Positions 5,263 to 34,866 of a stretch of 64,000 nucleotides of DNA are shown here, one piece after another. Below the pieces are notes generated by a model, which saw only the letters and a program-made list of their open reading frames with translations, ran no database searches and was not told the DNA's origin. Location: NCBI GenBank assembly GCA_963974925.1, contig CAXBFD010000014.1:10027-74026 (forward strand). Reading direction: 5' to 3'. This DNA is from an uncultured bacterium (GTDB taxonomy: Bacteria; Planctomycetota; Planctomycetia; Planctomycetales; Planctomycetaceae). Within the stretch, counting starts at the first letter, position 1, and each line of letters starts with the position of its first letter. A program made the translations under genes and the position numbers.

Positions 5263-5922
5263 TCACACCGTCAAACGCTCCTCCCGTCGCCTTAACTCTG
5301 ATCGCATCAAACCTCTTCCATACTCATTTTTCGTAACTAATTTAAATCCATGCCTTTCGAGAATCGTGGCAGGATCAATCAGGGATTGGGCCTGGATCTG
5401 AGCCACTAACCTGAAAAACAGATACATCACTTTGATCCACAGTATTGCTCTCAACTGCTGCAGCCTGCCCCCTGAGATCTGAAAATCTGCATTTAACCAG
5501 AGCGCACTCTCTTTACACGCGTCTGCAATCTTGGAAATACATTCATTGAGTGTCTGTTCGGTAAACACATCCAGAAAATAATTGGTAACAATCAAATCGT
5601 AGTCCTGGTCTGGCATCGCTTCCATTATCAAATCGCGATGATAAAATTTTACACGATTCAGCGCATGCAAAGAGGATTCCCGCAACCGTTTTTGAGCAAG
5701 ATCCAGCATGGTCTGACTCGAATCAATGTAATGGACTTGTTCACAGTCGCTGTGTTTCAGAAATTCGATTAAAAATTCCCCATCCCCCTCACCAATTAAT
5801 GCCGTTTTATTGACTGAAGGTAAATTCCCAAGCTGGGCTGTTCGACAGCGTTGCATCTGGTTATTAAAGACAATTTTTTCTAAACGCTTAAAATAAGGTG
5901 CAATTCGATCGAAATTCATCAT
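5263..5922 (-). CDS. class I SAM-dependent methyltransferase
   Basis: Glycine-rich SAM motif LIGEGDGEF, an acidic residue at the strand end (YIDSS), and DLIVTNYFLDVF. The preferred start is ATG 5922, which forms an ATGA overlap with the upstream stop (5919-5921). The track start at 6000 would overlap the upstream gene by 82 nt. Confidence 0.7.
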   Translation of the reverse strand: MMNFDRIAPYFKRLEKIVFNNQMQRCRTAQLGNLPSVNKTALIGEGDGEFLIEFLKHSDCEQVHYIDSSQTMLDLAQKRLRESSLHALNRVKFYHRDLIMEAMPDQDYDLIVTNYFLDVFTEQTLNECISKIADACKESALWLNADFQISGGRLQQLRAILWIKVMYLFFRLVAQIQAQSLIDPATILERHGFKLVTKNEYGRGLMRSELRRREERLTV

Positions 5923-24647: not shown

Positions 24648-25766
24648 TCAAATCAAACCGAATCGCTTTGCCTCGGATCTTCGTTCTGGACCTATGTAGC
24701 GAAAACTGGCGGTAATTCTTCCATGGCTGGAAAAAACACGCTGTTTTCTTTTCTGCTCAAATCCGCTCTGGCGCTGCACTGAAGAAGGTCTGCGAGTCAT
24801 TTTCCAGAACATTGATTTTGCCCGATGACGGATCATGGCGGGATGTCCGGTGATACTGACATATGGTTTTTTACAACAATACAGAGAAGCCACATATTCG
24901 CTCAGCGCATTGCCTATGCCAACTCCTTGAAAATCAGGGAGACAGACCGTTCGGTGCTCTCTGAAAGAGGATGCCGTTTTGTGTGGGAAATGAATCACGG
25001 CGGTGAAAGCAGCCGGCTGCCCATCGACTATCGCCATAAAGCAGTTTGCAGAATTCTGTAATGAAGAATCTAAATAATGATGTTTCCGGAAAAGTTCCCA
25101 CGCACTTTGATGCACGTTAACAATCTCGAGAGAGACCGGGGGCCGCGATTGCCTTTCACACCTCCATTGAAAATCATTGATTGCAGGCTGGAAAATCCAG
25201 TCGGGGTCAAGCCAGTCCAGAATATCATAATGACAGGATACAGCGACAAATTTCTGTTGTCTTTTTCGTACGGTTTTCGCAATAGCACAACTGCCAATCC
25301 GGGCGACTGTGCGGTCAACCACTGAAGTGAACTCATCAATCACTACTGACTCTGACTGTTCAGCCAAAGCTCTCGCCATGGTCACACGAAACTGCTCACC
25401 ATTCGAAAGAACATGATAAGGCTTCAACCAGCCTGGAGGCGAAGAGAAACCTACCGATGAGAGCAGGGCAGTGATCTCTTTGATTCCCATTGTTTCGGGA
25501 AAGGAATCAATAATGCTTTTCTTTTGAAACCATTCAAATCCTTCGACAAAATCAGTTCGAAACAGTTCTCTGGCGATCGTCGTTTTTCCACTTCCGGAAG
25601 GCCCCACGATCAATCCAATCTGCCACTCATGCGCATGCAGGGGCAGATCTGCCGACCATTCAACGCGACACTTTTTTTCAGCAGGAACGCCAAACATTCC
25701 TTCCAGCTGAATCACACGGGGACTGCGGATTATCTGAGATTCCCTTACGATATCCACGCGCGACAT
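24648..25766 (-). CDS. fusion protein: ABC-type ATPase domain + C-terminal GNAT-like acetyltransferase domain
   Basis: The N-terminal ~215 aa carry Walker A GPSGSGKTT, the signature-like LSNGEQFRVTMARAL, Walker B VVIDEFTSVVD and the H-loop VSCHYD. The C-terminal ~150 aa have a GNAT acetyl-CoA motif (LPDFQGVGIGNALSEYV). No TM domain is present. Confidence 0.65.
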   Translation of the reverse strand: MSRVDIVRESQIIRSPRVIQLEGMFGVPAEKKCRVEWSADLPLHAHEWQIGLIVGPSGSGKTTIARELFRTDFVEGFEWFQKKSIIDSFPETMGIKEITALLSSVGFSSPPGWLKPYHVLSNGEQFRVTMARALAEQSESVVIDEFTSVVDRTVARIGSCAIAKTVRKRQQKFVAVSCHYDILDWLDPDWIFQPAINDFQWRCERQSRPPVSLEIVNVHQSAWELFRKHHYLDSSLQNSANCFMAIVDGQPAAFTAVIHFPHKTASSFREHRTVCLPDFQGVGIGNALSEYVASLYCCKKPYVSITGHPAMIRHRAKSMFWKMTRRPSSVQRQSGFEQKRKQRVFSSHGRITASFRYIGPERRSEAKRFGLI

Positions 25767-26302
25767 TCGAACCCCTCTTTTTTCAACCGCTTCAAAAGCG
25801 CCACCTGCTCGGACTCATCTTTGCAATCAATCAGTACGCTGAAAGAATCGACCAGCAGATGCGATTCATCTTCACTCTCGATGATCTCTGTCAGCGCAGG
25901 CTCTTTAGACAGGCGAGAACTCAAAAGCTCCTGCAGATCTTTAGAATCTGTCGAAATCGATTCAATCAGATTTCCCAGAGCCAGCTGATCCGTAAGCGAC
26001 ATGGATGTAATGAAATCGAATGTCGCCAGAATTTTATCTGCCTCCATTTTCGTCACATCGAGAACCAGGCAAGGCACTTTTTCCTCTTCTGCGATATCAG
26101 CCCGCAAATGCCCGTCAATCAATTCGAATGTTCCGTCATTGCATTCTCGCACCAGACAGGCGGAAGCAAATCCCACCTCTTTCAGAACCGCCCGTAATGC
26201 AGTTTCCTGAGATTGCGTGTGGTTCCGCCAGTTCTTGCCATTGCGTTTGAGCAAGGATGCTTTGATTCTTTGAAAACTTTTGACACGGTCTTTTAATTGC
26301 AT
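25745..26302 (-). CDS. ParB/Srx-fold (ParB N-terminal nuclease-like) domain protein
   Basis: NWRNHTQSQETALRAVLKEVGF...FELIDGHLRADIA...VPCLVLD matches the ParB-N pattern (NPR.H, DGHxR box). An acidic linker and a small C-terminal domain follow. The gene overlaps the next gene by 22 nt. Confidence 0.65.
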   Translation of the reverse strand: MQLKDRVKSFQRIKASLLKRNGKNWRNHTQSQETALRAVLKEVGFASACLVRECNDGTFELIDGHLRADIAEEEKVPCLVLDVTKMEADKILATFDFITSMSLTDQLALGNLIESISTDSKDLQELLSSRLSKEPALTEIIESEDESHLLVDSFSVLIDCKDESEQVALLKRLKKEGFECRAWIS

Positions 26303-26324
26303 TTTGACTCCACTTTAAAATATG

Positions 26325-26585
26325 TCACTGGCAATCCAGGCAACGATTTGCACCATAACGTTGCCGGATCTGATCTTTGTGGTAATCCCCTTTAAAAATG
26401 GGTGCGCCACACCGGGCGCAGGCAGAAATCGGTTCGTGCTTCATCAGCACTGAGCTGACAACAAGCTCGGGATACTCGGCTTCAACCATTTTTGCCGCCA
26501 GAACATGAGTCTGTGCCACTCGATCAAGCCGTTTGACAGGGCGTTGATGTTTTCCTTGCGCCAGGTAAACAATAAACTGAGGCAT
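26325..26585 (-). CDS. small zinc-ribbon protein
   Basis: 86 aa with CARC...CLDC near the C-terminus. AAAGGAG lies upstream of the ATG. Confidence 0.45.
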   Translation of the reverse strand: MPQFIVYLAQGKHQRPVKRLDRVAQTHVLAAKMVEAEYPELVVSSVLMKHEPISACARCGAPIFKGDYHKDQIRQRYGANRCLDCQ

Positions 26586-26639
26586 GTCACACTCCTTTTC
26601 TAATCTGGAATTTTCGGTTCAACACGATATTCAAGACTC

Positions 26640-26667
26640 ATTCTAAAAAGAATTTGATGATTGTCAT
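26640..26667 (-). promoter_or_regulatory. possible internal sigma70-like promoter for the Zn-ribbon/ParB/ABC-GNAT sub-module
   Basis: The minus strand reads ATGACA, then 16 nt, then TAGAAT, inside the only sizeable gap (131 nt) of the operon. This is motif resemblance only. Confidence 0.25.
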
Positions 26668-26716
26668 GAGGTGCATCCAGGCACACGTGCTCAAGCTGAA
26701 CCAGAATCGCATGCCT

Positions 26717-27169
26717 CTATTTCACAAGCTCCAAATCAAACAGCGTGTCATTATCTGCAGGAAACACTACTTCACTGACGGGCGCAATTTTGTCGTTCTG
26801 CAATGCGTCGGCAATCAACCAGCCACCAATGGGCACGCCGACACCTGTTGCGATCATCCCTGCGCCTAATACCAGTTTTGCGAGCGTGCCCGCAGTATTC
26901 CCGCTTGCCGGCAGGTACTGGTGAATCACGCTGTTGTCGTCGCCAATGTGCATGTCCTCACCCTCTGGACGATGATGGTCCGTGATCTCTTTGCCGAGCA
27001 GCTTTTCACGCGTGGCCAGCGTGAGTGAATTCACATTATTGAACCGCGTCGCCGCCTGTCTCAATCCCTCCGCTCGTTCCCCCACTTTTATCTTCCACCA
27101 TGCTTGAGCCAGTTTCTCCTTCCAGTTCAGAGGAGTTGTCTGCTCCGCTGTCGTTGCTTCCTCCGTCAT
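26717..27169 (-). CDS. hypothetical protein with C-terminal TM helix (150 aa)
   Basis: Own GGAG (27178-27181) 8 nt upstream of ATG 27169. The N-terminus is amphipathic and helical. A G-rich TM segment LAKLVLGAGMIATGVGVPIGGWLIADAL lies near the C-terminus. Confidence 0.45.
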   Translation of the reverse strand: MTEEATTAEQTTPLNWKEKLAQAWWKIKVGERAEGLRQAATRFNNVNSLTLATREKLLGKEITDHHRPEGEDMHIGDDNSVIHQYLPASGNTAGTLAKLVLGAGMIATGVGVPIGGWLIADALQNDKIAPVSEVVFPADNDTLFDLELVK

Positions 27170-27305
27170 CTTTGTTACTCCATGAATACACGAGCTTGCC
27201 GAACGTTCCGAATTGGAACGCCCGGTCTAGCTCATTGTTGTCGGCAATCATTTGAGCATGGAATTCCGTGCTTTGCCTGATCAGCTCTTCCAATGGGTCA
27301 ACCAT
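27036..27305 (-). CDS. hypothetical 89-aa protein with G/S/D/E-rich tail, overlapping the next gene by 134 nt
   Basis: The ATG is coupled to the upstream stop as TAATG. The first ~45 aa look globular and helical. The tail is low complexity and is encoded out of frame over the start of the next ORF. Confidence 0.35.
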   Translation of the reverse strand: MVDPLEELIRQSTEFHAQMIADNNELDRAFQFGTFGKLVYSWSNKDDGGSNDSGADNSSELEGETGSSMVEDKSGGTSGGIETGGDAVQ

Positions 27306-27574
27306 TATGCTGGCGCCGGCCCGCCGGGGCTTACCTTGGCCTGGACTTCACGAATCCCGACAGCCTCATCGAGAGTCACCATGCGCTTATTTTCCAGGTA
27401 ATCGTAGTCAACGACTTTTTGAACGGTCACAAAATTGTTTTGTGCGACTGTTCCGGTCTGCATGAGTTGCGTCAGCATGTGATTCGCAACATTATCTGAT
27501 AAATCTACTGCCATCTTCTGTTCTCCTTCTCCCTCAATGGGGACTTCCACTTCTAAAATATCGCCGTCCGGCAT
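27305..27574 (-). CDS. hypothetical 89-aa protein
   Basis: Both ends are coupled as TAATG. It has an acidic N-terminus and a Q/N/V-rich core. Confidence 0.45.
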   Translation of the reverse strand: MPDGDILEVEVPIEGEGEQKMAVDLSDNVANHMLTQLMQTGTVAQNNFVTVQKVVDYDYLENKRMVTLDEAVGIREVQAKVSPGGPAPA

Positions 27575-28431
27575 TACTGAGCCTCACTTTGTTTAACGGC
27601 CTTAAACCTGAGCTTGATGGGATCACCAAGCGGATACTTCTGCTCTGCTACCACTTTTCCATCCGCCCCAATGATCTGGACCGGGATCTCCGTTTTCGAC
27701 AACTTGTCGAGCTGCTCTCTCAGTTTGGACAACTCGACCTCTAAAGCTGTAACCAGCTCGCGATTGTCTGTTCCATTCGGCCTGGCCGGTTCTTCCATGT
27801 CTACGATCACAGCGGGTTCACAACGACAGTCTGGCAGCCTGCCGTACTGTCGGATGAGTTGTTGACGAATCAATATTCCGTCTGTATAGATTGTGTTTGA
27901 AAAGTCATGCCCCTTGATGATGCCGACCAGCTGACCATTCACCAGGATCGGCCCGCCTGAGTCCCCCCTGGCGACAACCTTTGAGAAGAATCGACCACTC
28001 TGATTGACGCGGATTTTCGCCCGCAATGTTTTGAATGTTTCAATTCCGTTTGAGTAGCCGTAAGCGACTGCTTCGACACCATTTGCAGGCTGGCTCTCCG
28101 CAACAGTAAAACACCGCGTGGCACTGATTTTCTGTGTTTCAAGAATGGCATAGTCGGTTGCATTGTCGTACCGTTTATAAACGACCCGCGCGCCCCACCA
28201 TTGTCCGCTATAACCGACGTGAATGGTTTTCGCCTGAAGCACATTGTGCGCTGCAGTGAGATAAACCGATCGTTCTTTTATATTTCCAATATAGGCACAG
28301 GCCCCCGTTCCAATAATCTGACGACATCCGTCTGACGTGCATTCCGTCGCTGTGACCCTGAGAACCAATGCCTGCGCATCGACAATCGCGGTCATCAACA
28401 TGAACAGTAGAAACGTGATTGATCTCACCAT
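27574..28431 (-). CDS. secreted trypsin-like (S1 chymotrypsin-fold) serine protease with coiled-coil C-terminal extension
   Basis: Signal peptide MVRSITFLLFMLMTAIVDAQA. The catalytic triad contexts are LTAAHNV (His), TDYAIL (Asp) and GDSGGP (Ser). The C-terminal ~80 aa include LEVELSKLREQLDKL. Confidence 0.8.
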   Translation of the reverse strand: MVRSITFLLFMLMTAIVDAQALVLRVTATECTSDGCRQIIGTGACAYIGNIKERSVYLTAAHNVLQAKTIHVGYSGQWWGARVVYKRYDNATDYAILETQKISATRCFTVAESQPANGVEAVAYGYSNGIETFKTLRAKIRVNQSGRFFSKVVARGDSGGPILVNGQLVGIIKGHDFSNTIYTDGILIRQQLIRQYGRLPDCRCEPAVIVDMEEPARPNGTDNRELVTALEVELSKLREQLDKLSKTEIPVQIIGADGKVVAEQKYPLGDPIKLRFKAVKQSEAQ

Positions 28432-28799
28432 TTGATGTACCTCTCAAAAAACAGCAGAACATAATGCCAGGGATTTACTGGGACTTTCCCTTCGGCCCAG
28501 TGAAACGCCGCCACGCCAAACAGCCTGACACGGCGGTAGTAGATATTTGCCATGAATTTCCCCAGATCGCAGCGTCTCAGGTTCCGATAAAAGGCTGCGT
28601 CTGCCCGTTGTCGGTCCTGCCTGCAACCACCTTTCGCATAGGCATAATCGTGCCAATGGCAGGCAGGTCTGATATCAACGCCTCCCCATTGATCCGGGGC
28701 ATAACTGCAGCCATTCGAGACAAAATATTCGGGAGGCGCTGGCCCTTCCATGATAGCTAACAGTTTTTCAGGCAGGTCCGAGTTTTTGAATTCGTTCAT
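28425..28799 (-). CDS. HD-motif protein, DUF1353-like / phospholipase-A2-like
   Basis: SNGCSYAP...ACHWHDYAY...RQRADAAFYRNL...IYYRRVRLFG. The C-x-x-HD-x-x-Y dyad resembles prokaryotic/viral PLA2. The overall pattern resembles the phage-associated DUF1353 family as I recall it. No signal peptide. Confidence 0.55.
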   Translation of the reverse strand: MNEFKNSDLPEKLLAIMEGPAPPEYFVSNGCSYAPDQWGGVDIRPACHWHDYAYAKGGCRQDRQRADAAFYRNLRRCDLGKFMANIYYRRVRLFGVAAFHWAEGKVPVNPWHYVLLFFERYIKW

Positions 28800-29044
28800 C
28801 AGTTCCCTCCGAAGACTCTGTCCTCGATACGACTAATCCGTCTCTCATGCGAATTGACCATTTCGATGAGTAATTCCTTGTTCGCATCCAGTTTTTCATC
28901 AATTTCGATCAATTGATGACTGTGTTCGATTAACGTTTTCGCTGTCCAGGTAATGGCTCCCACGCCGCCGGCAACGATGGGAGAAAAAACACAAGCAATC
29001 ACCCACGCTGGAATGAAAATTCCTTTACGAGTTGTTTCAGGCAT
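28799..29044 (-). CDS. small membrane protein: N-terminal TM helix + C-terminal coiled coil (81 aa)
   Basis: TM segment IFIPAWVIACVFSPIVAGGVGAITW, followed by the heptad-like LIEHSHQLIEIDEKLDANKELLIEMVNSHERRISRIEDRV. It is the first gene of the packed operon. Confidence 0.5.
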   Translation of the reverse strand: MPETTRKGIFIPAWVIACVFSPIVAGGVGAITWTAKTLIEHSHQLIEIDEKLDANKELLIEMVNSHERRISRIEDRVFGGN

Positions 29045-30908: not shown

Positions 30909-31652
30909 GAGATCAAACCTTACCAGATTTTTTCAACGTTGTCTTTCGTTTCAAAACCCAACAGGAAACGCGTACCTTTTACGCAGTTCAGTATCGTTCC
31001 GTGAAATCGAACACCTGATTCAATCGGAGCCGAAAGACTTCTGCAATCAGCTGGTTTGGGAAAGAAACAACGCGATAAAATATTCAGCGACACCTACAGC
31101 GGTCACTACGCGGCTGCCCCCAGGCAGAAATGGAATCGTGGTCTCACCACTCCAAAATAACAAAAATGATTCTAACATCCCGACGTGAACAAAGCAATAT
31201 ACGTCTTCTATTTTTTCTGAGGTGGAATCGATCAGATACTCGATAAAAATGCCTTGTTTTACAGGGTAAATTGACTCAAACCGGGGAATTAACCATGACA
31301 TTCAGAGAATCAAAATAAAACATCCTCAGATCTTGATAAAACCAGTTTAAACAGCCGCAGACGAGCCTTGTCCTCTCCTCTGAAAATATTTTTCTGAGGA
31401 CATTGCAGAACGATACTGATGAAAAAAACGACTGCTCACACAAGACAGTTGAAACGACAAATGAATCAGGAGACGCATCCATTTTTTCCTTATGGATGCT
31501 GCTGCAGTTGTCACTGTTCCAGACAATTTGTCTTCAACAAATAATTCAACACTCCCTGTTTATCTGGACCTGCGATGAGTGGCAGGCAAAATACAATCCG
31601 CTTAGAATGAAAAAGTTCTGAATTCCGCTCGCCGTTCTTGAAAGACGTTTCC

Positions 31653-33404
31653 ATGCCAGATCAAAGTCTGCCTGACCTCGAGGAAGAATTAGTCCCCGAT
31701 GAGGTCATCCCACACCAATCACTGCCTCCTCTTAAATACCGCGATCTACCACCGGCGATTTCCTGGAGAAAAATGATTGGCCCCAGCATTATGCTGGCAG
31801 GGCTCTCGCTTGGTTCGGGAGAATTTGTACTCTGGCCTTACATTACTTATAAAACCGGCTTTGTTTTCTTCTGGGCCTGTGTGCTGGGTGTGATGACTCA
31901 GTTTTTCATGAACATGGAAATCGAACGCTGGACCCTGGTTACAGGGGAAAGTGCGATTACCGGCTTTTGCCGACTGAACAAACACTGGGCCTGGATCATG
32001 CTGCTGTTGAATATTATTCCCTGGGCATGGCCGGGCTGGGCAACCGGTGCGGGAACAATGTTGAGCTGGACATTTTTTGGCCCGGAAACAATTGCCAGCG
32101 TGCAAGTGGAACCAGCGCCCTCGCAATTCTCACTGGAGGGGTTACCTGACAAAGTCGCTTACTCAGTTGAATCAGAAACACTGAAGTGGCGCGGCCCCAT
32201 GAATGAATCTGAGCGTGACGCCTTGAGCAGTACGTTCATTCGGAATCAAAGCCAGGATCAATCTCACGTACTCTTCGACAAAATCAATCAGGGGTATGAT
32301 CTGCAATACGAGGCAAAGTACAGTTCGTTTCTGGGAATCGCAGGCTTACTTCTGGTAGGCATCGTCTTAACAACCGGACCGGTGGTCTATAACACTGTTG
32401 AAAAAATTCAGATCTTCCTGGTTGGCATGATCTTTCTCATCGCAGTGATTCTCGGCATCTATCTCATCGAACCTTATGCCATTACTTCCATGCTCAAAGG
32501 TGCGGTCAATATCGGAAAGATGCCCGATGATTCCAGTGGATTATCTACGATGGCCCTGCTGGGCGCGCTGGCGTTTGCCGGTGCCGGCGGAACAATGAAT
32601 CTTGGCCAGAGCAATTTCATCAAAGACAAAGGTTACGGAATGGGCAAATACATCGGGCGTATCACCAGCCCGATCACCGGTCAGGAAGAGGCGGTCAGTG
32701 AAGCCGGTTATCATTTTAAACATACTCCTGAAAATCAAAAACGCTGGCAACAATGGTGGCGGGCTGCCAATATCGAACACTTCTTCAGTTTCTTTCTCAC
32801 CTGTCTGGCTTGTCTGATGCTGTTGTCGCTGATTTCGTATTCCCTGTTTTATGATGCAAACGGACAACTGATCGATGGAGTCGCCCAGTTTGGCTCCGGT
32901 CTCAATTTTATCTGGGGTCAGGCAACATTGCTGGAAGGCCGACTCGGCGGATCTTTCAAGCTGCTGTTTCTCCTGATGGGGGCCGCGATTCTACTCACGA
33001 CTGAACTGGGCGTTCTCGACGCTACCGCGCGGATCTCTGCGGATATTCTGAAAGTCAATTACCTGAGAGACAATGCACACTGGTCTTTGAGCAAACTTTA
33101 TTACGTGTTTCTCTGGAGCGAGATTCTGCTGGGTTCTGCAATCCTGTTATATGGCTCGATCGACCCTCAATTCAAACAACCTTTATTTCTGATTGAGACT
33201 TCTGCGGCCATGAACGGAGGCGTGATGTTTTTATATTCTTTGATATTGCTGTATATGAACTCGAAAATTCTCAGTCGGAGCATCAGCACCGGCCCTCTTC
33301 GATTTGTAGTGATGGTCTGGGCGGCTGCTTTCTTCGGTTATTTCAGCCTGCAGGCATTTCAAGTACAAATTGTCCCCTATTTTCGGTCCCTGTTCTCTAT
33401 TTGA
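31653..33404 (+). CDS. Nramp-related polytopic transporter-like protein with a large soluble insertion
   Basis: GPSIMLAGLSLGSGEFVLWPYI...VLGVMTQFFMNMEIERWTLVTGES parallels the Nramp TM1-TM3 region, but the DPGN motif is replaced. There are about 11-12 TM helices and a ~90-aa hydrophilic insert. Confidence 0.55.
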   Translation: MPDQSLPDLEEELVPDEVIPHQSLPPLKYRDLPPAISWRKMIGPSIMLAGLSLGSGEFVLWPYITYKTGFVFFWACVLGVMTQFFMNMEIERWTLVTGESAITGFCRLNKHWAWIMLLLNIIPWAWPGWATGAGTMLSWTFFGPETIASVQVEPAPSQFSLEGLPDKVAYSVESETLKWRGPMNESERDALSSTFIRNQSQDQSHVLFDKINQGYDLQYEAKYSSFLGIAGLLLVGIVLTTGPVVYNTVEKIQIFLVGMIFLIAVILGIYLIEPYAITSMLKGAVNIGKMPDDSSGLSTMALLGALAFAGAGGTMNLGQSNFIKDKGYGMGKYIGRITSPITGQEEAVSEAGYHFKHTPENQKRWQQWWRAANIEHFFSFFLTCLACLMLLSLISYSLFYDANGQLIDGVAQFGSGLNFIWGQATLLEGRLGGSFKLLFLLMGAAILLTTELGVLDATARISADILKVNYLRDNAHWSLSKLYYVFLWSEILLGSAILLYGSIDPQFKQPLFLIETSAAMNGGVMFLYSLILLYMNSKILSRSISTGPLRFVVMVWAAAFFGYFSLQAFQVQIVPYFRSLFSI

Positions 33405-33435
33405 TATCAAATGTTGTCATAGCAAGAAAAGACAC

Positions 33436-34866
33436 ATGCAAACTAATTTCGTTCCTCGAAAAGCCAGATTCCGGCCAGTTTCACCGGTCATTTCTTGCTG
33501 CGCAATCCTGTTCTGCCTGTTGTCTGAGTCCTGGGGCGCAACCTACTACGTCAACAATCGAATCGGCAGCGATGACAATGACGGTCTGTCACAAAAAACG
33601 CCGGTCGCAACCATTGCCAAAGCCATACAACTCTCTCAGACCAGCGACAGACTGGAACTCAAAAACACAGGAATTACATACAGGGAACCAATGTTATTCC
33701 GCAGACTTGGCGGACGACCTGACCGCCCTTTCCTTGTTGAAGGGAATGGCGCTGTTCTCTCTGGCTTGAAAACCATTGATCCTTCTAACTGGGAAGCCGT
33801 TAAAGACAATCTGTATGTTCTGCAGCTTGAGAAGAGCCCGTATGGAAATCCTTATCTTGTCGCTCGAGGTAAACGACTTGAGCAGGCGAAGAGTCTGGAA
33901 ACGATAAAACCGGTGCAGCATTTCTGGGACCGGAAGGAACACAAAGTTTATTTCTACTGTGAGAGTGAGAAACAACCTGCCGATTATCAGCTGGAAGCAA
34001 CTCTCACAACCAGCGGTTTTACTCTGGGCAGCGCCAGTTATATTGTCTGCCGCAATCTGATCTGCGAATACTTTTCCAATGACGGATTTAATATTCACGG
34101 TGACTGCCGGGGGATTCGGCTCGAAAATGTGATTGCGCGACATAATGGCGATGATGGTATCTCCATACACGAGTCTGGCGGCTTAATCGTGCAAAATGCT
34201 TATGTCCACGATAATTTTTATGGCATACAGGACGTTAACGCTTCCCGTTCCGTTTATAATGGTGTCCTGGCAGAAAGAAATCAGATTGGCGTCAGTCTGG
34301 TAGGTGGATATCATTCACTTGTCGACTGCCAGATTCGAAACAGTGCTCAAAAAGAGATCGATATCGCTGGCTCGAATCCCAGACATCTGATTGGTTCTGA
34401 GCTAAACCCGCTTTGTAAAACGATCCTTTTTGCCCAGAATGTGTCCCTGTTTGGAAATGGAAATCAGATAGGTCTCTGTGTGCGTAATGGTGCCTCTGCC
34501 ATCATGGAACGATCCGTAATCAGCAGTTCTGAAACTGGTCTTTTTGTCGATCAAAGCAGCCATTGTCACTTATCGCTGACAGCCATCACAGGCTGTACTA
34601 CGATTCTCAAATCTGAATCAAAAGAGGCGTTTTTTGATTTCAACATTTATGAATCTGGCCAGATCAACTGGTTGGGAACCGTTTTCCCGCCCAATCAATG
34701 GCTTGCCTACCTCACAGCCTCACAACGCGATCAGCATTCAAGAATGGGTCAAGTAACTGTCGCGCGGGACGGCATAGTCAGTATTCCCACTGGCTCGACG
34801 GCTTCTGGAATGGAGAAAAAAGTCGGCCCCACAGCACCATTTGAGCTTTCTTTTCCCCAGAACTAA
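33436..34866 (+). CDS. exported right-handed parallel beta-helix repeat protein
   Basis: Signal peptide, then YYVNNRIGSDDNDGLS, the typical beta-helix N-cap. Repeated G-x-x-I/V-x-N segments follow (NDGFNIHGD, DDGISIHES, NFYGIQD). ATG 33436 is preferred because the track start at 33370 overlaps the upstream gene. Confidence 0.6.
   Translation: MQTNFVPRKARFRPVSPVISCCAILFCLLSESWGATYYVNNRIGSDDNDGLSQKTPVATIAKAIQLSQTSDRLELKNTGITYREPMLFRRLGGRPDRPFLVEGNGAVLSGLKTIDPSNWEAVKDNLYVLQLEKSPYGNPYLVARGKRLEQAKSLETIKPVQHFWDRKEHKVYFYCESEKQPADYQLEATLTTSGFTLGSASYIVCRNLICEYFSNDGFNIHGDCRGIRLENVIARHNGDDGISIHESGGLIVQNAYVHDNFYGIQDVNASRSVYNGVLAERNQIGVSLVGGYHSLVDCQIRNSAQKEIDIAGSNPRHLIGSELNPLCKTILFAQNVSLFGNGNQIGLCVRNGASAIMERSVISSSETGLFVDQSSHCHLSLTAITGCTTILKSESKEAFFDFNIYESGQINWLGTVFPPNQWLAYLTASQRDQHSRMGQVTVARDGIVSIPTGSTASGMEKKVGPTAPFELSFPQN

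Follow-up and report, generated by a model that had tools for sequence, protein, structure and literature searches.

Several phage systems are known in which a protein of ParB-CTPase fold acts with, or is fused to, an enzyme that modifies DNA. Phage ParB-like proteins consisting of a nucleotide-binding domain (NBD), a linker and a C-terminal domain (CTD) are obligate activators of post-replicative DNA thymine dioxygenases (5mYOX) (O'Toole et al., bioRxiv 10.1101/2025.08.14.668559; PNAS 2026, PMC13229309). Surveyed 5mYOX genes share contigs with ParB genes in 27% of cases and with terminase genes in 19% (bioRxiv 10.1101/2025.08.14.668559; PMC13229309). In phages the commonest fusion partner of a ParB-CTPase fold is a DNA methyltransferase; the nucleotide bound can be CTP, ATP or GTP, and one acetyltransferase-ParB fusion, GA105, binds GTP (Kaljevic et al. 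2025, PMC12704722). We describe here a locus from an uncultured bacterium of the Planctomycetaceae (contig CAXBFD010000014.1), analyzed within a stretch of 64,000 nt that we refer to as the window. Three co-oriented open reading frames (ORFs) fill positions 24648-26585 of its minus strand and encode, in 5' to 3' order, a zinc-ribbon protein, a ParB-like protein and a fusion of an ATP-binding cassette (ABC) ATPase to a GNAT domain (ABC::GNAT). The core of this locus, the ParB-like gene and the ABC::GNAT gene (hereafter the pair), is a widespread two-gene phage module. An earlier prediction made from the DNA of the window (the original prediction) had described the ORFs, their motifs, the overlap of the last two genes and the gap upstream of the first; all of these were found in full, with matching coordinates on the minus strand and with the motifs back-translated from the DNA.

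The pair resembles the 5mYOX systems in two respects. Like the ParB proteins of those systems, its ParB-like protein has an N-terminal nucleotide-binding domain, a variable linker and a small CTD, with no helix-turn-helix (HTH) domain, and in both cases the ParB-type gene adjoins the gene of an enzyme that modifies, or for the pair is predicted to modify, nucleic acid, often near terminase genes. In the 5mYOX ParB proteins the canonical Glu of box II is replaced by His or Asp, comparable to the 'GH.R' of the ParB-like protein in the window. The systems differ in that the 5mYOX enzyme is an iron/2-oxoglutarate dioxygenase, and dependence on ParB was shown there whereas for the pair it would be expected by analogy. 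The ParB-DNA methyltransferase fusions (PHROG 498), which are enriched in phages and prophages, also combine a ParB-CTPase fold with a DNA-modifying enzyme, but they transfer a methyl group from S-adenosylmethionine, are normally a single polypeptide and contain no ATPase. GA105 is an instance of a ParB-CTPase fold joined to an acetyltransferase and shows that the nucleoside triphosphate (NTP) bound by such a fold need not be CTP; no ABC domain has been reported in it. Box I and box II of the GA105 ParB domain lie at residues 253-296, and the ParB fold begins after about 250 residues. Judged from its sequence, the acetyltransferase domain of GA105 appears to be N-terminal, the reverse of the domain order of the pair, and because of this reversed order we did not accept GA105 as a member of PHROG 11143, the phage protein family to which ABC::GNAT belongs.

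A two-gene module upstream of phage terminase genes

Nearly the full length of the fusion protein is covered by its match to PHROG 11143 (E = 5.9e-110; residues 6-363 against profile positions 3-354 of 357). This family is catalogued as "unknown function", and its members carry the label 'ATP binding cassette-like protein' in GenBank phage records. At least 7900 proteins in a large protein collection match ABC::GNAT, and a profile of the GNAT domain alone, run against 1.84 billion proteins, matched 2013 cluster representatives (50% identity), of which 1354 had E<=1e-10. Matches to the ABC::GNAT query are encoded by 88 GenBank phage records; in about 54 of the 88 the match spans most of the protein, and the weakest matches consist of the ABC half only. 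The hosts of these phages include Gordonia, Arthrobacter, Streptococcus, Lactococcus, Oenococcus, Porphyromonas, Burkholderia, Pseudomonas, Leptospira and Pasteurella, among others. The family extends over phages of Actinobacteria, Firmicutes, Bacteroidetes, Proteobacteria, Spirochaetes and Planctomycetes. Some of these phages, both lytic and temperate, can be cultivated; cultivable carriers include Gordonia phages NHagos and Yago84, Arthrobacter EastWest, Leptospira LE3 and LE4, Burkholderia phiE255 and Pseudoalteromonas SL25. The original prediction knew of no earlier description of an ABC-NBD::GNAT architecture paired with ParB. A large phage family with this architecture was already catalogued, although no function is known for it. 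Full-text searches of the literature yielded no paper on ABC::GNAT as a partner of ParB and no experimental study of any member; as far as the literature was searched, the pairing is undescribed, while the gene family itself is already in databases.

The surroundings of the fusion gene were compared in 166 loci, consisting of 80 IMG/VR contigs, 80 GTDB genomes and a few others. Since the best 80 matches from each collection were taken, the sample is biased toward relatives of at least 43% identity; genes were called by a simple longest-ORF procedure. A ParB-type gene lies immediately upstream of ABC::GNAT in 143 of the 166 loci. When only loci with 700 nt or more of upstream sequence are counted, 136 in all, the partner is immediately upstream in 124 and nearby in 10, that is, present in 134 of 136. 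The overlap of 22 nt found in the window recurs identically in 66 of the 143 loci with an adjacent partner and is the commonest junction; other common overlap values mostly reflect over-extension of ORF starts. In addition, nine of the 150 best cluster representatives are single-chain fusions of ParB, ABC and GNAT. Genomic coupling of the ParB-type gene and ABC::GNAT is obligate, with occasional fusion. The linkage to ParB that the original prediction had drawn from a single window is thus stronger than that window allowed.

The first large ORF downstream of the pair encodes the large terminase (TerL). We detected TerL in at least 86 of 126 loci, a lower bound because BLAST against 53 sequences is insensitive. 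When the 53 TerL sequences were assigned to Pfam families, Terminase_6N (32), Terminase_3 (14), GpA (6) and TerL_ATPase (2) were found; the pair therefore stands upstream of small terminase (TerS) and TerL genes of at least four different Pfam TerL families. The small gene between ABC::GNAT and TerL is a recognizable TerS in at least 13 of 45 loci. The order ParB, ABC::GNAT, (TerS), TerL, portal can be read from the annotation of Streptococcus phage 315.4, Gordonia phage NHagos and three metagenomic prophages.

This position is compatible with a role in DNA packaging, in which the ParB-like protein and the ABC ATPase would assist the terminase in recognizing, organizing or cutting concatemers (a pac/cos or HNH-like role) and the GNAT domain would be regulatory or structural. 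Location immediately upstream of terminase genes of four TerL families argues for such a role, as do three loci (L055, L057 and L062) in which TerL begins a few bases past the ABC::GNAT stop codon with no small gene intervening, and HNH genes that flank the pair in some loci. We nevertheless consider a packaging accessory quite improbable. Seven genomes of the planctomycete genus Gimesia retain the pair under purifying selection and contain no terminase in the 8 kb downstream of it, a recognizable TerS is present in many loci, and the invariant CoA motif and EHR triad of the GNAT half argue that this domain is catalytic. The narrower idea that the pair substitutes for the small terminase was dropped as a general rule because TerS genes are recognizable after the pair in many loci.

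Two variations in the arrangement of the genes were observed. In Streptococcus prophage 315.4 (L001, positions 5560-5700) a frameshift at a run of five C (TTCCCCCACG) divides ABC::GNAT in two, and the GNAT part runs on in the -1 frame, where it has no start codon. A two-piece match of this kind, to ABC and GNAT, was seen in many phages of Streptococcus, Oenococcus, Lactococcus (P335), Enterococcus and Thomasclavelia; the annotation of the Thomasclavelia phages gives the ABC part and the N-acetyltransferase part a gene each. Such two-piece forms could be pseudogenes, products of a programmed frameshift or genuinely split genes. The module is also carried by many species of Nonomuraea (L145-L163), with TerL 0.6-3 kb downstream. 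In several of these genomes 1-2 kb of other genes lie between the ParB-type gene and ABC::GNAT; in others the ParB-type gene is directly upstream.

Domains of the fusion protein and of its ParB-like partner

The ABC half of the fusion contains Walker A, signature, Walker B and H-loop motifs which, together with the GNAT motif FQGVGIGNAL, are invariant in 39 homologues. The D-loop TSVVD is also invariant, as is an N-terminal helix of the ABC domain (R17, V18, Q20, G23, F25); no clear Q-loop could be assigned in this half. Pfam ABC_tran scores 33.9 bits against a cut-off of 25, and the first Foldseek matches of a full-length AlphaFold2 model (predicted local distance difference test score, pLDDT, 86.5) are ABC NBDs. 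With this motif set and fold, the fusion belongs to the ABC ATPase superfamily. Among PDB sequences there is no close solved structure for it, only generic NBD matches. Inteins or homing endonucleases sit exactly at the Walker A or signature motif in some homologues, which marks these as critical, indispensable catalytic sites. One homologue (P0197) has a Hint and LAGLIDADG intein directly after Walker A, two others (P0191 and P0193) have insertions of 340-425 aa at an LSGGQ-type signature motif, one with an AP2 domain, and three more (P0129, P0133 and P0149) have smaller insertions in the ABC domain. Homologues of the ABC half that stand alone, without GNAT (residues ~4-189, 22-28% identity), were observed in SSU5-like phage-plasmids of Salmonella, Klebsiella and Escherichia and in phages of Rhizobium and Pseudomonas syringae.

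Database names such as 'amino-acid ABC transporter ATP-binding protein YecC' and 'iron siderophore transporter', as well as the generic NBD similarity, would make the fusion an ordinary transporter ATPase; an antibiotic or microcin resistance acetyltransferase is the corresponding reading of its other half. We regard both as almost certainly wrong. No permease or binding-protein gene is present in the window module, every NCBIfam transporter score of the fusion is about 10-fold below its cut-off with no specific family assigned, and the genomic context is consistently that of phage terminase genes and not of transport. The original prediction had noted that a membrane domain is lacking, and a hydropathy scan agreed with it: in all three proteins every 19-residue window stays below a hydropathy of 1.6. 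A search with PADLOC gave only partial P-loop/signature matches of the fusion, to mad3 and mad8, and none for the ParB-like or zinc-ribbon protein. The fusion resembles the soluble ABC ATPases whose targets are ribosomes or nucleic acids (Rad50/SMC, UvrA, MutS, ABC-F, ABCE1) in having a membrane-free NBD that presumably dimerizes on ATP to clamp a macromolecule. It differs from them in possessing a single short NBD (~200 aa) without coiled coil, tandem NBDs or linker domains, and in the catalytic GNAT domain fused to it.

The GNAT families of Pfam fall below their cut-offs for the protein in the window (Acetyltransf_7, 20.5 against 27; Acetyltransf_1, 16.7 against 20.7), and residues 201-372 were therefore modeled separately; the homologues P0143, P0193 and P0197 do reach the Pfam GNAT gathering threshold. 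The AlphaFold2 model of this domain has a pLDDT of 88.6. When it was compared with the PDB, 224 entries matched at E<=1e-3, and the top 50 were all GNAT acetyltransferases (prob 1.0, TM 0.5-0.6). A profile of the domain found nothing significant in PDB sequences. The acetyl-CoA motif Q280-G-V-G-I-G285 and a triad E270-H271-R272 are invariant across the family. On the basis of the model, the C-terminal half is a true GNAT fold with an intact CoA motif, as the original prediction had proposed, and binding and transfer of an acyl group from acyl-CoA are predicted.

Among the structural matches is TmcA (2zpa), at rank 4 for the full model (415 aligned columns) and rank 12 for the GNAT domain. It is the sole multidomain PDB entry that matches both halves of ABC::GNAT, with a TM-score of 0.30 to the full model. 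TmcA and NAT10 use ATP hydrolysis to drive the acetyl-CoA-dependent acetylation of cytidine in tRNA or rRNA, and in both TmcA/NAT10 and ABC::GNAT a P-loop ATPase is fused N-terminal to GNAT. The pair could thus be a TmcA-like RNA acetyltransferase that carries out ATP-dependent N4-acetylcytidine formation or another acylation of tRNA or rRNA, for example against anticodon nucleases or in late retuning of translation. The match of 2zpa to both halves, the basic GNAT half (see below) and the precedent of ATPase-coupled GNATs that acetylate RNA cytidine speak for this explanation, which we consider unlikely. The ATPase of TmcA is a RecD-like helicase module, accompanied by DUF1726 and a tRNA-binding tail, whereas that of ABC::GNAT is an ABC NBD with LSNGEQ, and none of the three TmcA elements is present; for these reasons the fusion was not placed in the TmcA/NAT10 family. 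TmcA has no ParB partner and no detectable sequence homology to ABC::GNAT beyond the fold. Both the presence of a ParB partner and the proximity to terminase genes point instead to DNA. A gene for an ASCH-domain protein adjoins the pair in Streptococcus phage 315.4, and ASCH-domain proteins are N4-acylcytidine amidohydrolases. We did not retain this as a hint of N4-acetylcytosine, since ASCH genes occur in only 5 of 168 loci and are not adjacent there.

The GNAT half is strongly basic in all of 153 sequences examined, with a median isoelectric point (pI) of 10.7 and a minimum of 9.9; that of the protein in the window is 10.4. The ABC half is mildly acidic (pI 5.7) and the ParB-type partner acidic (median 4.6). 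A uniformly basic GNAT half is as expected of a polyanion substrate, although as an argument for nucleic acid the pI is indirect. We consider it somewhat unlikely that the enzyme is instead a protein acetyltransferase, regulated by the acidic ParB-like subunit and directed at host or phage proteins (nucleoid, RNA polymerase, defense or packaging proteins) for takeover or anti-defense at the early-to-late switch. The extreme pI of the GNAT half and the relatives of the ParB-CTPase-fold partner that act on DNA point to nucleic acid, no match to PADLOC or to a known anti-defense family was found, and we know of no precedent for an ABC ATPase that drives protein acetylation. Most characterized GNATs, however, and the nearest structural neighbors of this domain, which are generic (RimI, Naa50/60, SpeG and PaiA), act on proteins or amines. 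A Porphyromonas phage also carries the annotation 'acr candidate' on a feature under the ABC::GNAT match, and phage GNATs in polyvalent proteins have been predicted to be RimI-like modifiers of proteins (PMC5512222).

The combination of an acidic partner and a basic enzyme, their tight translational coupling and the retention of the pair in the Gimesia chromosome without phage structural genes could also be explained by a toxin-antitoxin or abortive infection system, in which a GNAT toxin acting on aminoacyl-tRNA (TacT/AtaT-like) would be held in check by the ParB-like protein. Such a system is very improbable. GNAT toxins are about 170 aa long, have ribbon-helix-helix or HTH antitoxins and contain no ATPase; PADLOC returned no match to a defense or toxin-antitoxin model, and the existence of single-chain fusions is a further point against it. 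In Leptospira phages LE3 and LE4, which are lytic, the module is located directly before packaging genes (PMC6078989).

The ParB-like protein contains FELIDGHLRADIA, with DGHLR as its box II. In it a ParB_N core is followed by a variable acidic linker and a strongly conserved C-terminal mini-domain (conserved residues F154, C160, E163, Q166, G177, C180 and R181), and no HTH DNA-binding domain was found. With the protein of the window alone the match to Pfam ParB_N is weak and below the cut-off (E = 0.0039), and PHROG matches are to the ParB-methyltransferase family and ParB-like families (1e-10 to 1e-9), the best being PHROG 498. When this protein was aligned with 60 upstream neighbors, 35 of the 61 sequences matched ParB_N, and a profile of all 61 matched Spo0J/ParB/Noc structures at 1e-13 to 1e-10. 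The same profile is weaker against ParB nucleases (6e-7) and sulfiredoxin (2e-3). The partner, by these sequence comparisons, carries a ParB-CTPase fold. The original prediction had spoken of ParB/Srx folds, as CTP-binding clamps, NTPases or nucleases; the side of the CTP-switch proteins ParB and Noc is favored, with nucleases and sulfiredoxin further off. Of the nucleotide-binding motifs, box I (N-x-R; here N24, R26, H28) and box II (G-x-x-R; here G64-H65-L66-R67) are kept in the protein of the window, and box III (E/D-N-x-x-R) reads T-F-D-F in place of A-D-N-R, a minority variant with D at this column in 40 of 133 sequences. A canonical partition ParB (ParABS) was rejected: an HTH domain is lacking and no ParA gene is adjacent in the window.

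Both frames of the 22-nt overlap are coding: translation gives C R A W I S stop for ParB and M S R V D I V for ABC::GNAT. The codon of Cys180 provides the TG of the fusion ATG, and the conserved Cys180-Arg-Ala codons supply the start codon and the first codons of the fusion.

Proposed acylation of nucleic acid by a ParB-gated enzyme

A ParB-gated, ATP-driven acyl-CoA transferase that modifies DNA is the best inference we can offer for the pair, and we put it forward tentatively; it would parallel the ParB-dependent phage thymine dioxygenases, the ParB-methyltransferase fusions and TmcA. The original prediction had suggested an NTP-driven module for the acetylation or sensing of nucleic acid; NTP-driven acylation of nucleic acid remains the best reading, and the basic GNAT half and the published phage DNA-modifying enzymes that depend on ParB add support to it. 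Also in favor of DNA acylation are the near-constant linkage and occasional fusion of the two genes, the invariant ABC and CoA motifs, the match of TmcA to both halves, the closeness of the partner to ParB/Noc and to ParB-DNA methyltransferases, the location ahead of terminase genes, and the synteny and purifying selection seen in Gimesia. The two proteins would form a complex, probably ParB2:(ABC::GNAT)2. Binding of an NTP by the ParB fold, together with ATP-driven head-to-tail dimerization of the ABC domains, would load or clamp the enzyme on nucleic acid, the most likely target being replicated phage DNA shortly before packaging. The basic GNAT domain would then move an acyl group from acyl-CoA onto the amino group of a base, and the outcome would be a post-replicative DNA mark for anti-restriction or self-marking. 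In Gimesia the same chemistry may have been co-opted for the host, for example for DNA marking or for exclusion of incoming DNA. A more specific form of this proposal is possible but doubtful: the pair would be a widespread writer of an acyl mark on double-stranded DNA (for example N4-acetyl-deoxycytidine or N6-acyl-deoxyadenosine), with an NTP-gated ParB clamp recruiting the ATP-driven ABC-GNAT enzyme to newly replicated phage DNA ahead of packaging, and would have been domesticated in Gimesia, with a zinc-ribbon adaptor and its own promoter, as a DNA-marking or exclusion system. RNA or protein targets are also possible for the pair.

The Mom protein of phage Mu offers a comparison with DNA modification by a protein of this fold. 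Mom has been assigned to the GNAT/acyltransferase fold, modifies adenine in phage DNA and is taken to serve anti-restriction; in the Mu record it is described as an enzyme of adenine modification that acts 'just prior to packaging'. It has no ATPase domain and no ParB partner, and no homology to it was found (hhalign probability 0.1; BLASTP E 9.7).

Several observations weigh against DNA acylation by the pair. GNATs most often acetylate proteins or small molecules, and the structural neighbors nearest to this GNAT domain (RimI, Naa50, SpeG) are generic. Sequence similarity to Mom is lacking, and the class of the ATPase differs from that of TmcA. Because the ParB-like protein of the window is without the Asn and Arg of box III, its sequence suggests that hydrolysis or even binding of CTP may fail. 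A packaging role would fit the neighborhood of terminase genes as well, and no restriction-type nuclease partner was recognized in the Gimesia cluster. Functional support for any member of the family comes from sequence, models and analogy. Finally, point mutations of single conserved CTP-contact residues in a 5mYOX-associated ParB caused no marked loss of activity in a heterologous E. coli assay (PMC13229309), so that the clamp mechanism is unestablished even for this analogue.

The Gimesia copy and its surroundings

The closest homologues of ABC::GNAT, with 70-94% identity, are found in Gimesia and related Planctomycetaceae. A whole minus-strand array of nine to ten genes, extending from an 81-aa membrane protein through ABC::GNAT and flanked by a response-regulator gene and a convergent PIG-L deacetylase gene, occupies the same chromosomal site in seven other genomes (eight with the window). 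In comparison with G. fumaroli, the proportion of synonymous differences (pS) is saturated at 0.62-0.74, and that of nonsynonymous differences (pN) is 0.12 for the fusion, 0.17 for the ParB-like gene and 0.06 for the zinc-ribbon gene. The resulting dN/dS of 0.02-0.15 (0.02 for the zinc-ribbon gene) is like that of the neighboring transaldolase, NagB-like and PIG-L genes, and the substitution pattern indicates that the Gimesia pair is under strong purifying selection. From synteny, selection and the lack of a terminase, we conclude that the Gimesia locus is a vertically inherited, selectively maintained remnant or co-option of a phage module and not an active prophage.

The original prediction had treated the locus as a three-gene module. 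This view did not hold, since a jackhmmer search over all ORFs of 168 loci recovered the zinc-ribbon gene from seven Gimesia loci only, and a small CxxC-rich gene upstream of ParB is rare outside Gimesia (9 of 114). The zinc-ribbon gene was therefore ruled out as a general third member, and the general unit has two genes. Its cysteines (C56xxC59...C82xxC85) are at the C-terminal end of the protein, and the gene is predicted to be an addition of the Gimesia lineage that is co-transcribed with the pair.

The original prediction had also assigned the locus a promoter of its own, in the gap of 131 nt upstream of the zinc-ribbon gene. A match to the consensus is by itself weak evidence, as 11 such sites were found in 5.4 kb where 4.9 +/- 2.4 are expected. 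In eight Gimesia genomes, however, the -10 box TTAGAAT does not change and the -35 element is conserved amid intergenic bases that vary, a pattern that supports the predicted promoter. Upstream of the -35 element a block, TTGAGCAC...TGCCTG.ATGCACC, is conserved in all Gimesia genomes; it may serve as an operator or bind a regulator.

The genes upstream of the promoter gap are closely packed, with overlapping starts and stops, and form an array that is syntenic in the eight Gimesia genomes. It encodes the 81-aa membrane protein, a 124-aa PLA2/DUF1353-like protein, a 285-aa secreted trypsin-like protein, two proteins of 89 aa, one of which is 93% identical to its G. fumaroli counterpart, and a 150-aa protein with a C-terminal hydrophobic segment. 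None of these genes co-occurs with the pair outside Gimesia, and their Pfam and PHROG matches are weak; the array may be a phage remnant resembling a lysis cassette. A few kb away, on the opposite strand, are two genes that are conserved in Gimesia (90% and 77% identity to G. fumaroli, respectively): the first encodes a 588-aa protein that matches no family, the second a 498-aa beta-helix protein whose matches to tail-fiber PHROGs are weak. Taken as a whole, the interpretation in the original prediction was partly supported; the phage origin of the module, its position upstream of terminase genes and the vertically inherited, terminase-less state of the Gimesia copy had been missed.

Table 1. 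Positions in the window of the features of the locus and of its surroundings
Feature	Position	Strand	Basis
ABC ATPase::GNAT fusion gene, 372 aa, PHROG 11143 member	24648..25766	-	ORF and full-length profile match
ABC nucleotide-binding domain, residues 1-200	25167..25766	-	Pfam ABC_tran, Foldseek, invariant motifs
Walker A GPSGSGKT, residues 55-62	25581-25604	-	Back-translated
Signature LSNGEQ, residues 120-125	25392-25409	-	Back-translated
Walker B VVIDEF, residues 141-146	25329-25346	-	Back-translated
H-loop His179	25230-25232	-	Back-translated
GNAT-fold acyltransferase domain (activity predicted), residues 201-372	24651..25166	-	AlphaFold2 domain model, PDB matches, invariant residues
GNAT acetyl-CoA motif QGVGIG (Q280-G285, Q/RxxGxG/A)	24912-24929	-	Back-translated
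ParB-CTPase-fold partner protein, 185 aa	25745..26302	-	Pfam ParB_N, PHROG, family profile
ParB_N core	about 25988-26278	-	
Box II DGHLR	26102-26116	-	
C-terminal mini-domain, residues 150-185 (~35 aa)	25748-25855	-	
22-nt dual-coding overlap of ParB-like and ABC::GNAT genes	25745..25766	-	Read from DNA
C4 zinc-ribbon protein, 86 aa	26325..26585	-	ORF, jackhmmer over loci
Shine-Dalgarno AAAGGAG, six bases ahead of zinc-ribbon ATG	26592-26598	-	Read from DNA
Upstream gap	26586-26716		
Promoter-like ATGACA-16 nt-TAGAAT	26640..26667	-	10/12 consensus matches; conserved in 8 Gimesia genomes
Conserved block upstream of -35, candidate operator	26668-26716	-	
Packed gene array upstream of promoter gap	26717-29044	-	
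Genes of 588-aa and 498-aa proteins	31638-34866	+	

Labels in public databases such as 'amino-acid ABC transporter' and 'iron siderophore transporter' are misleading for this family. If the proposed function is true, acyl-CoA-dependent base acylation by an ABC-ATPase-coupled GNAT would join the post-replicative modifications of phage DNA. With the thymine dioxygenases as the first, the pair would then represent a second class of enzymes dependent on a partner of ParB-CTPase fold lacking a DNA-binding domain, and would support a general role of ParB folds as loaders for DNA-modifying enzymes. The Gimesia locus is a rare case of a phage module fixed across a bacterial genus under purifying selection. 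Since the family is large and occurs in cultivable phages, the function of the pair is directly testable, and even with an RNA or protein target the function of a terminase-adjacent pair in thousands of phages would be worth knowing.

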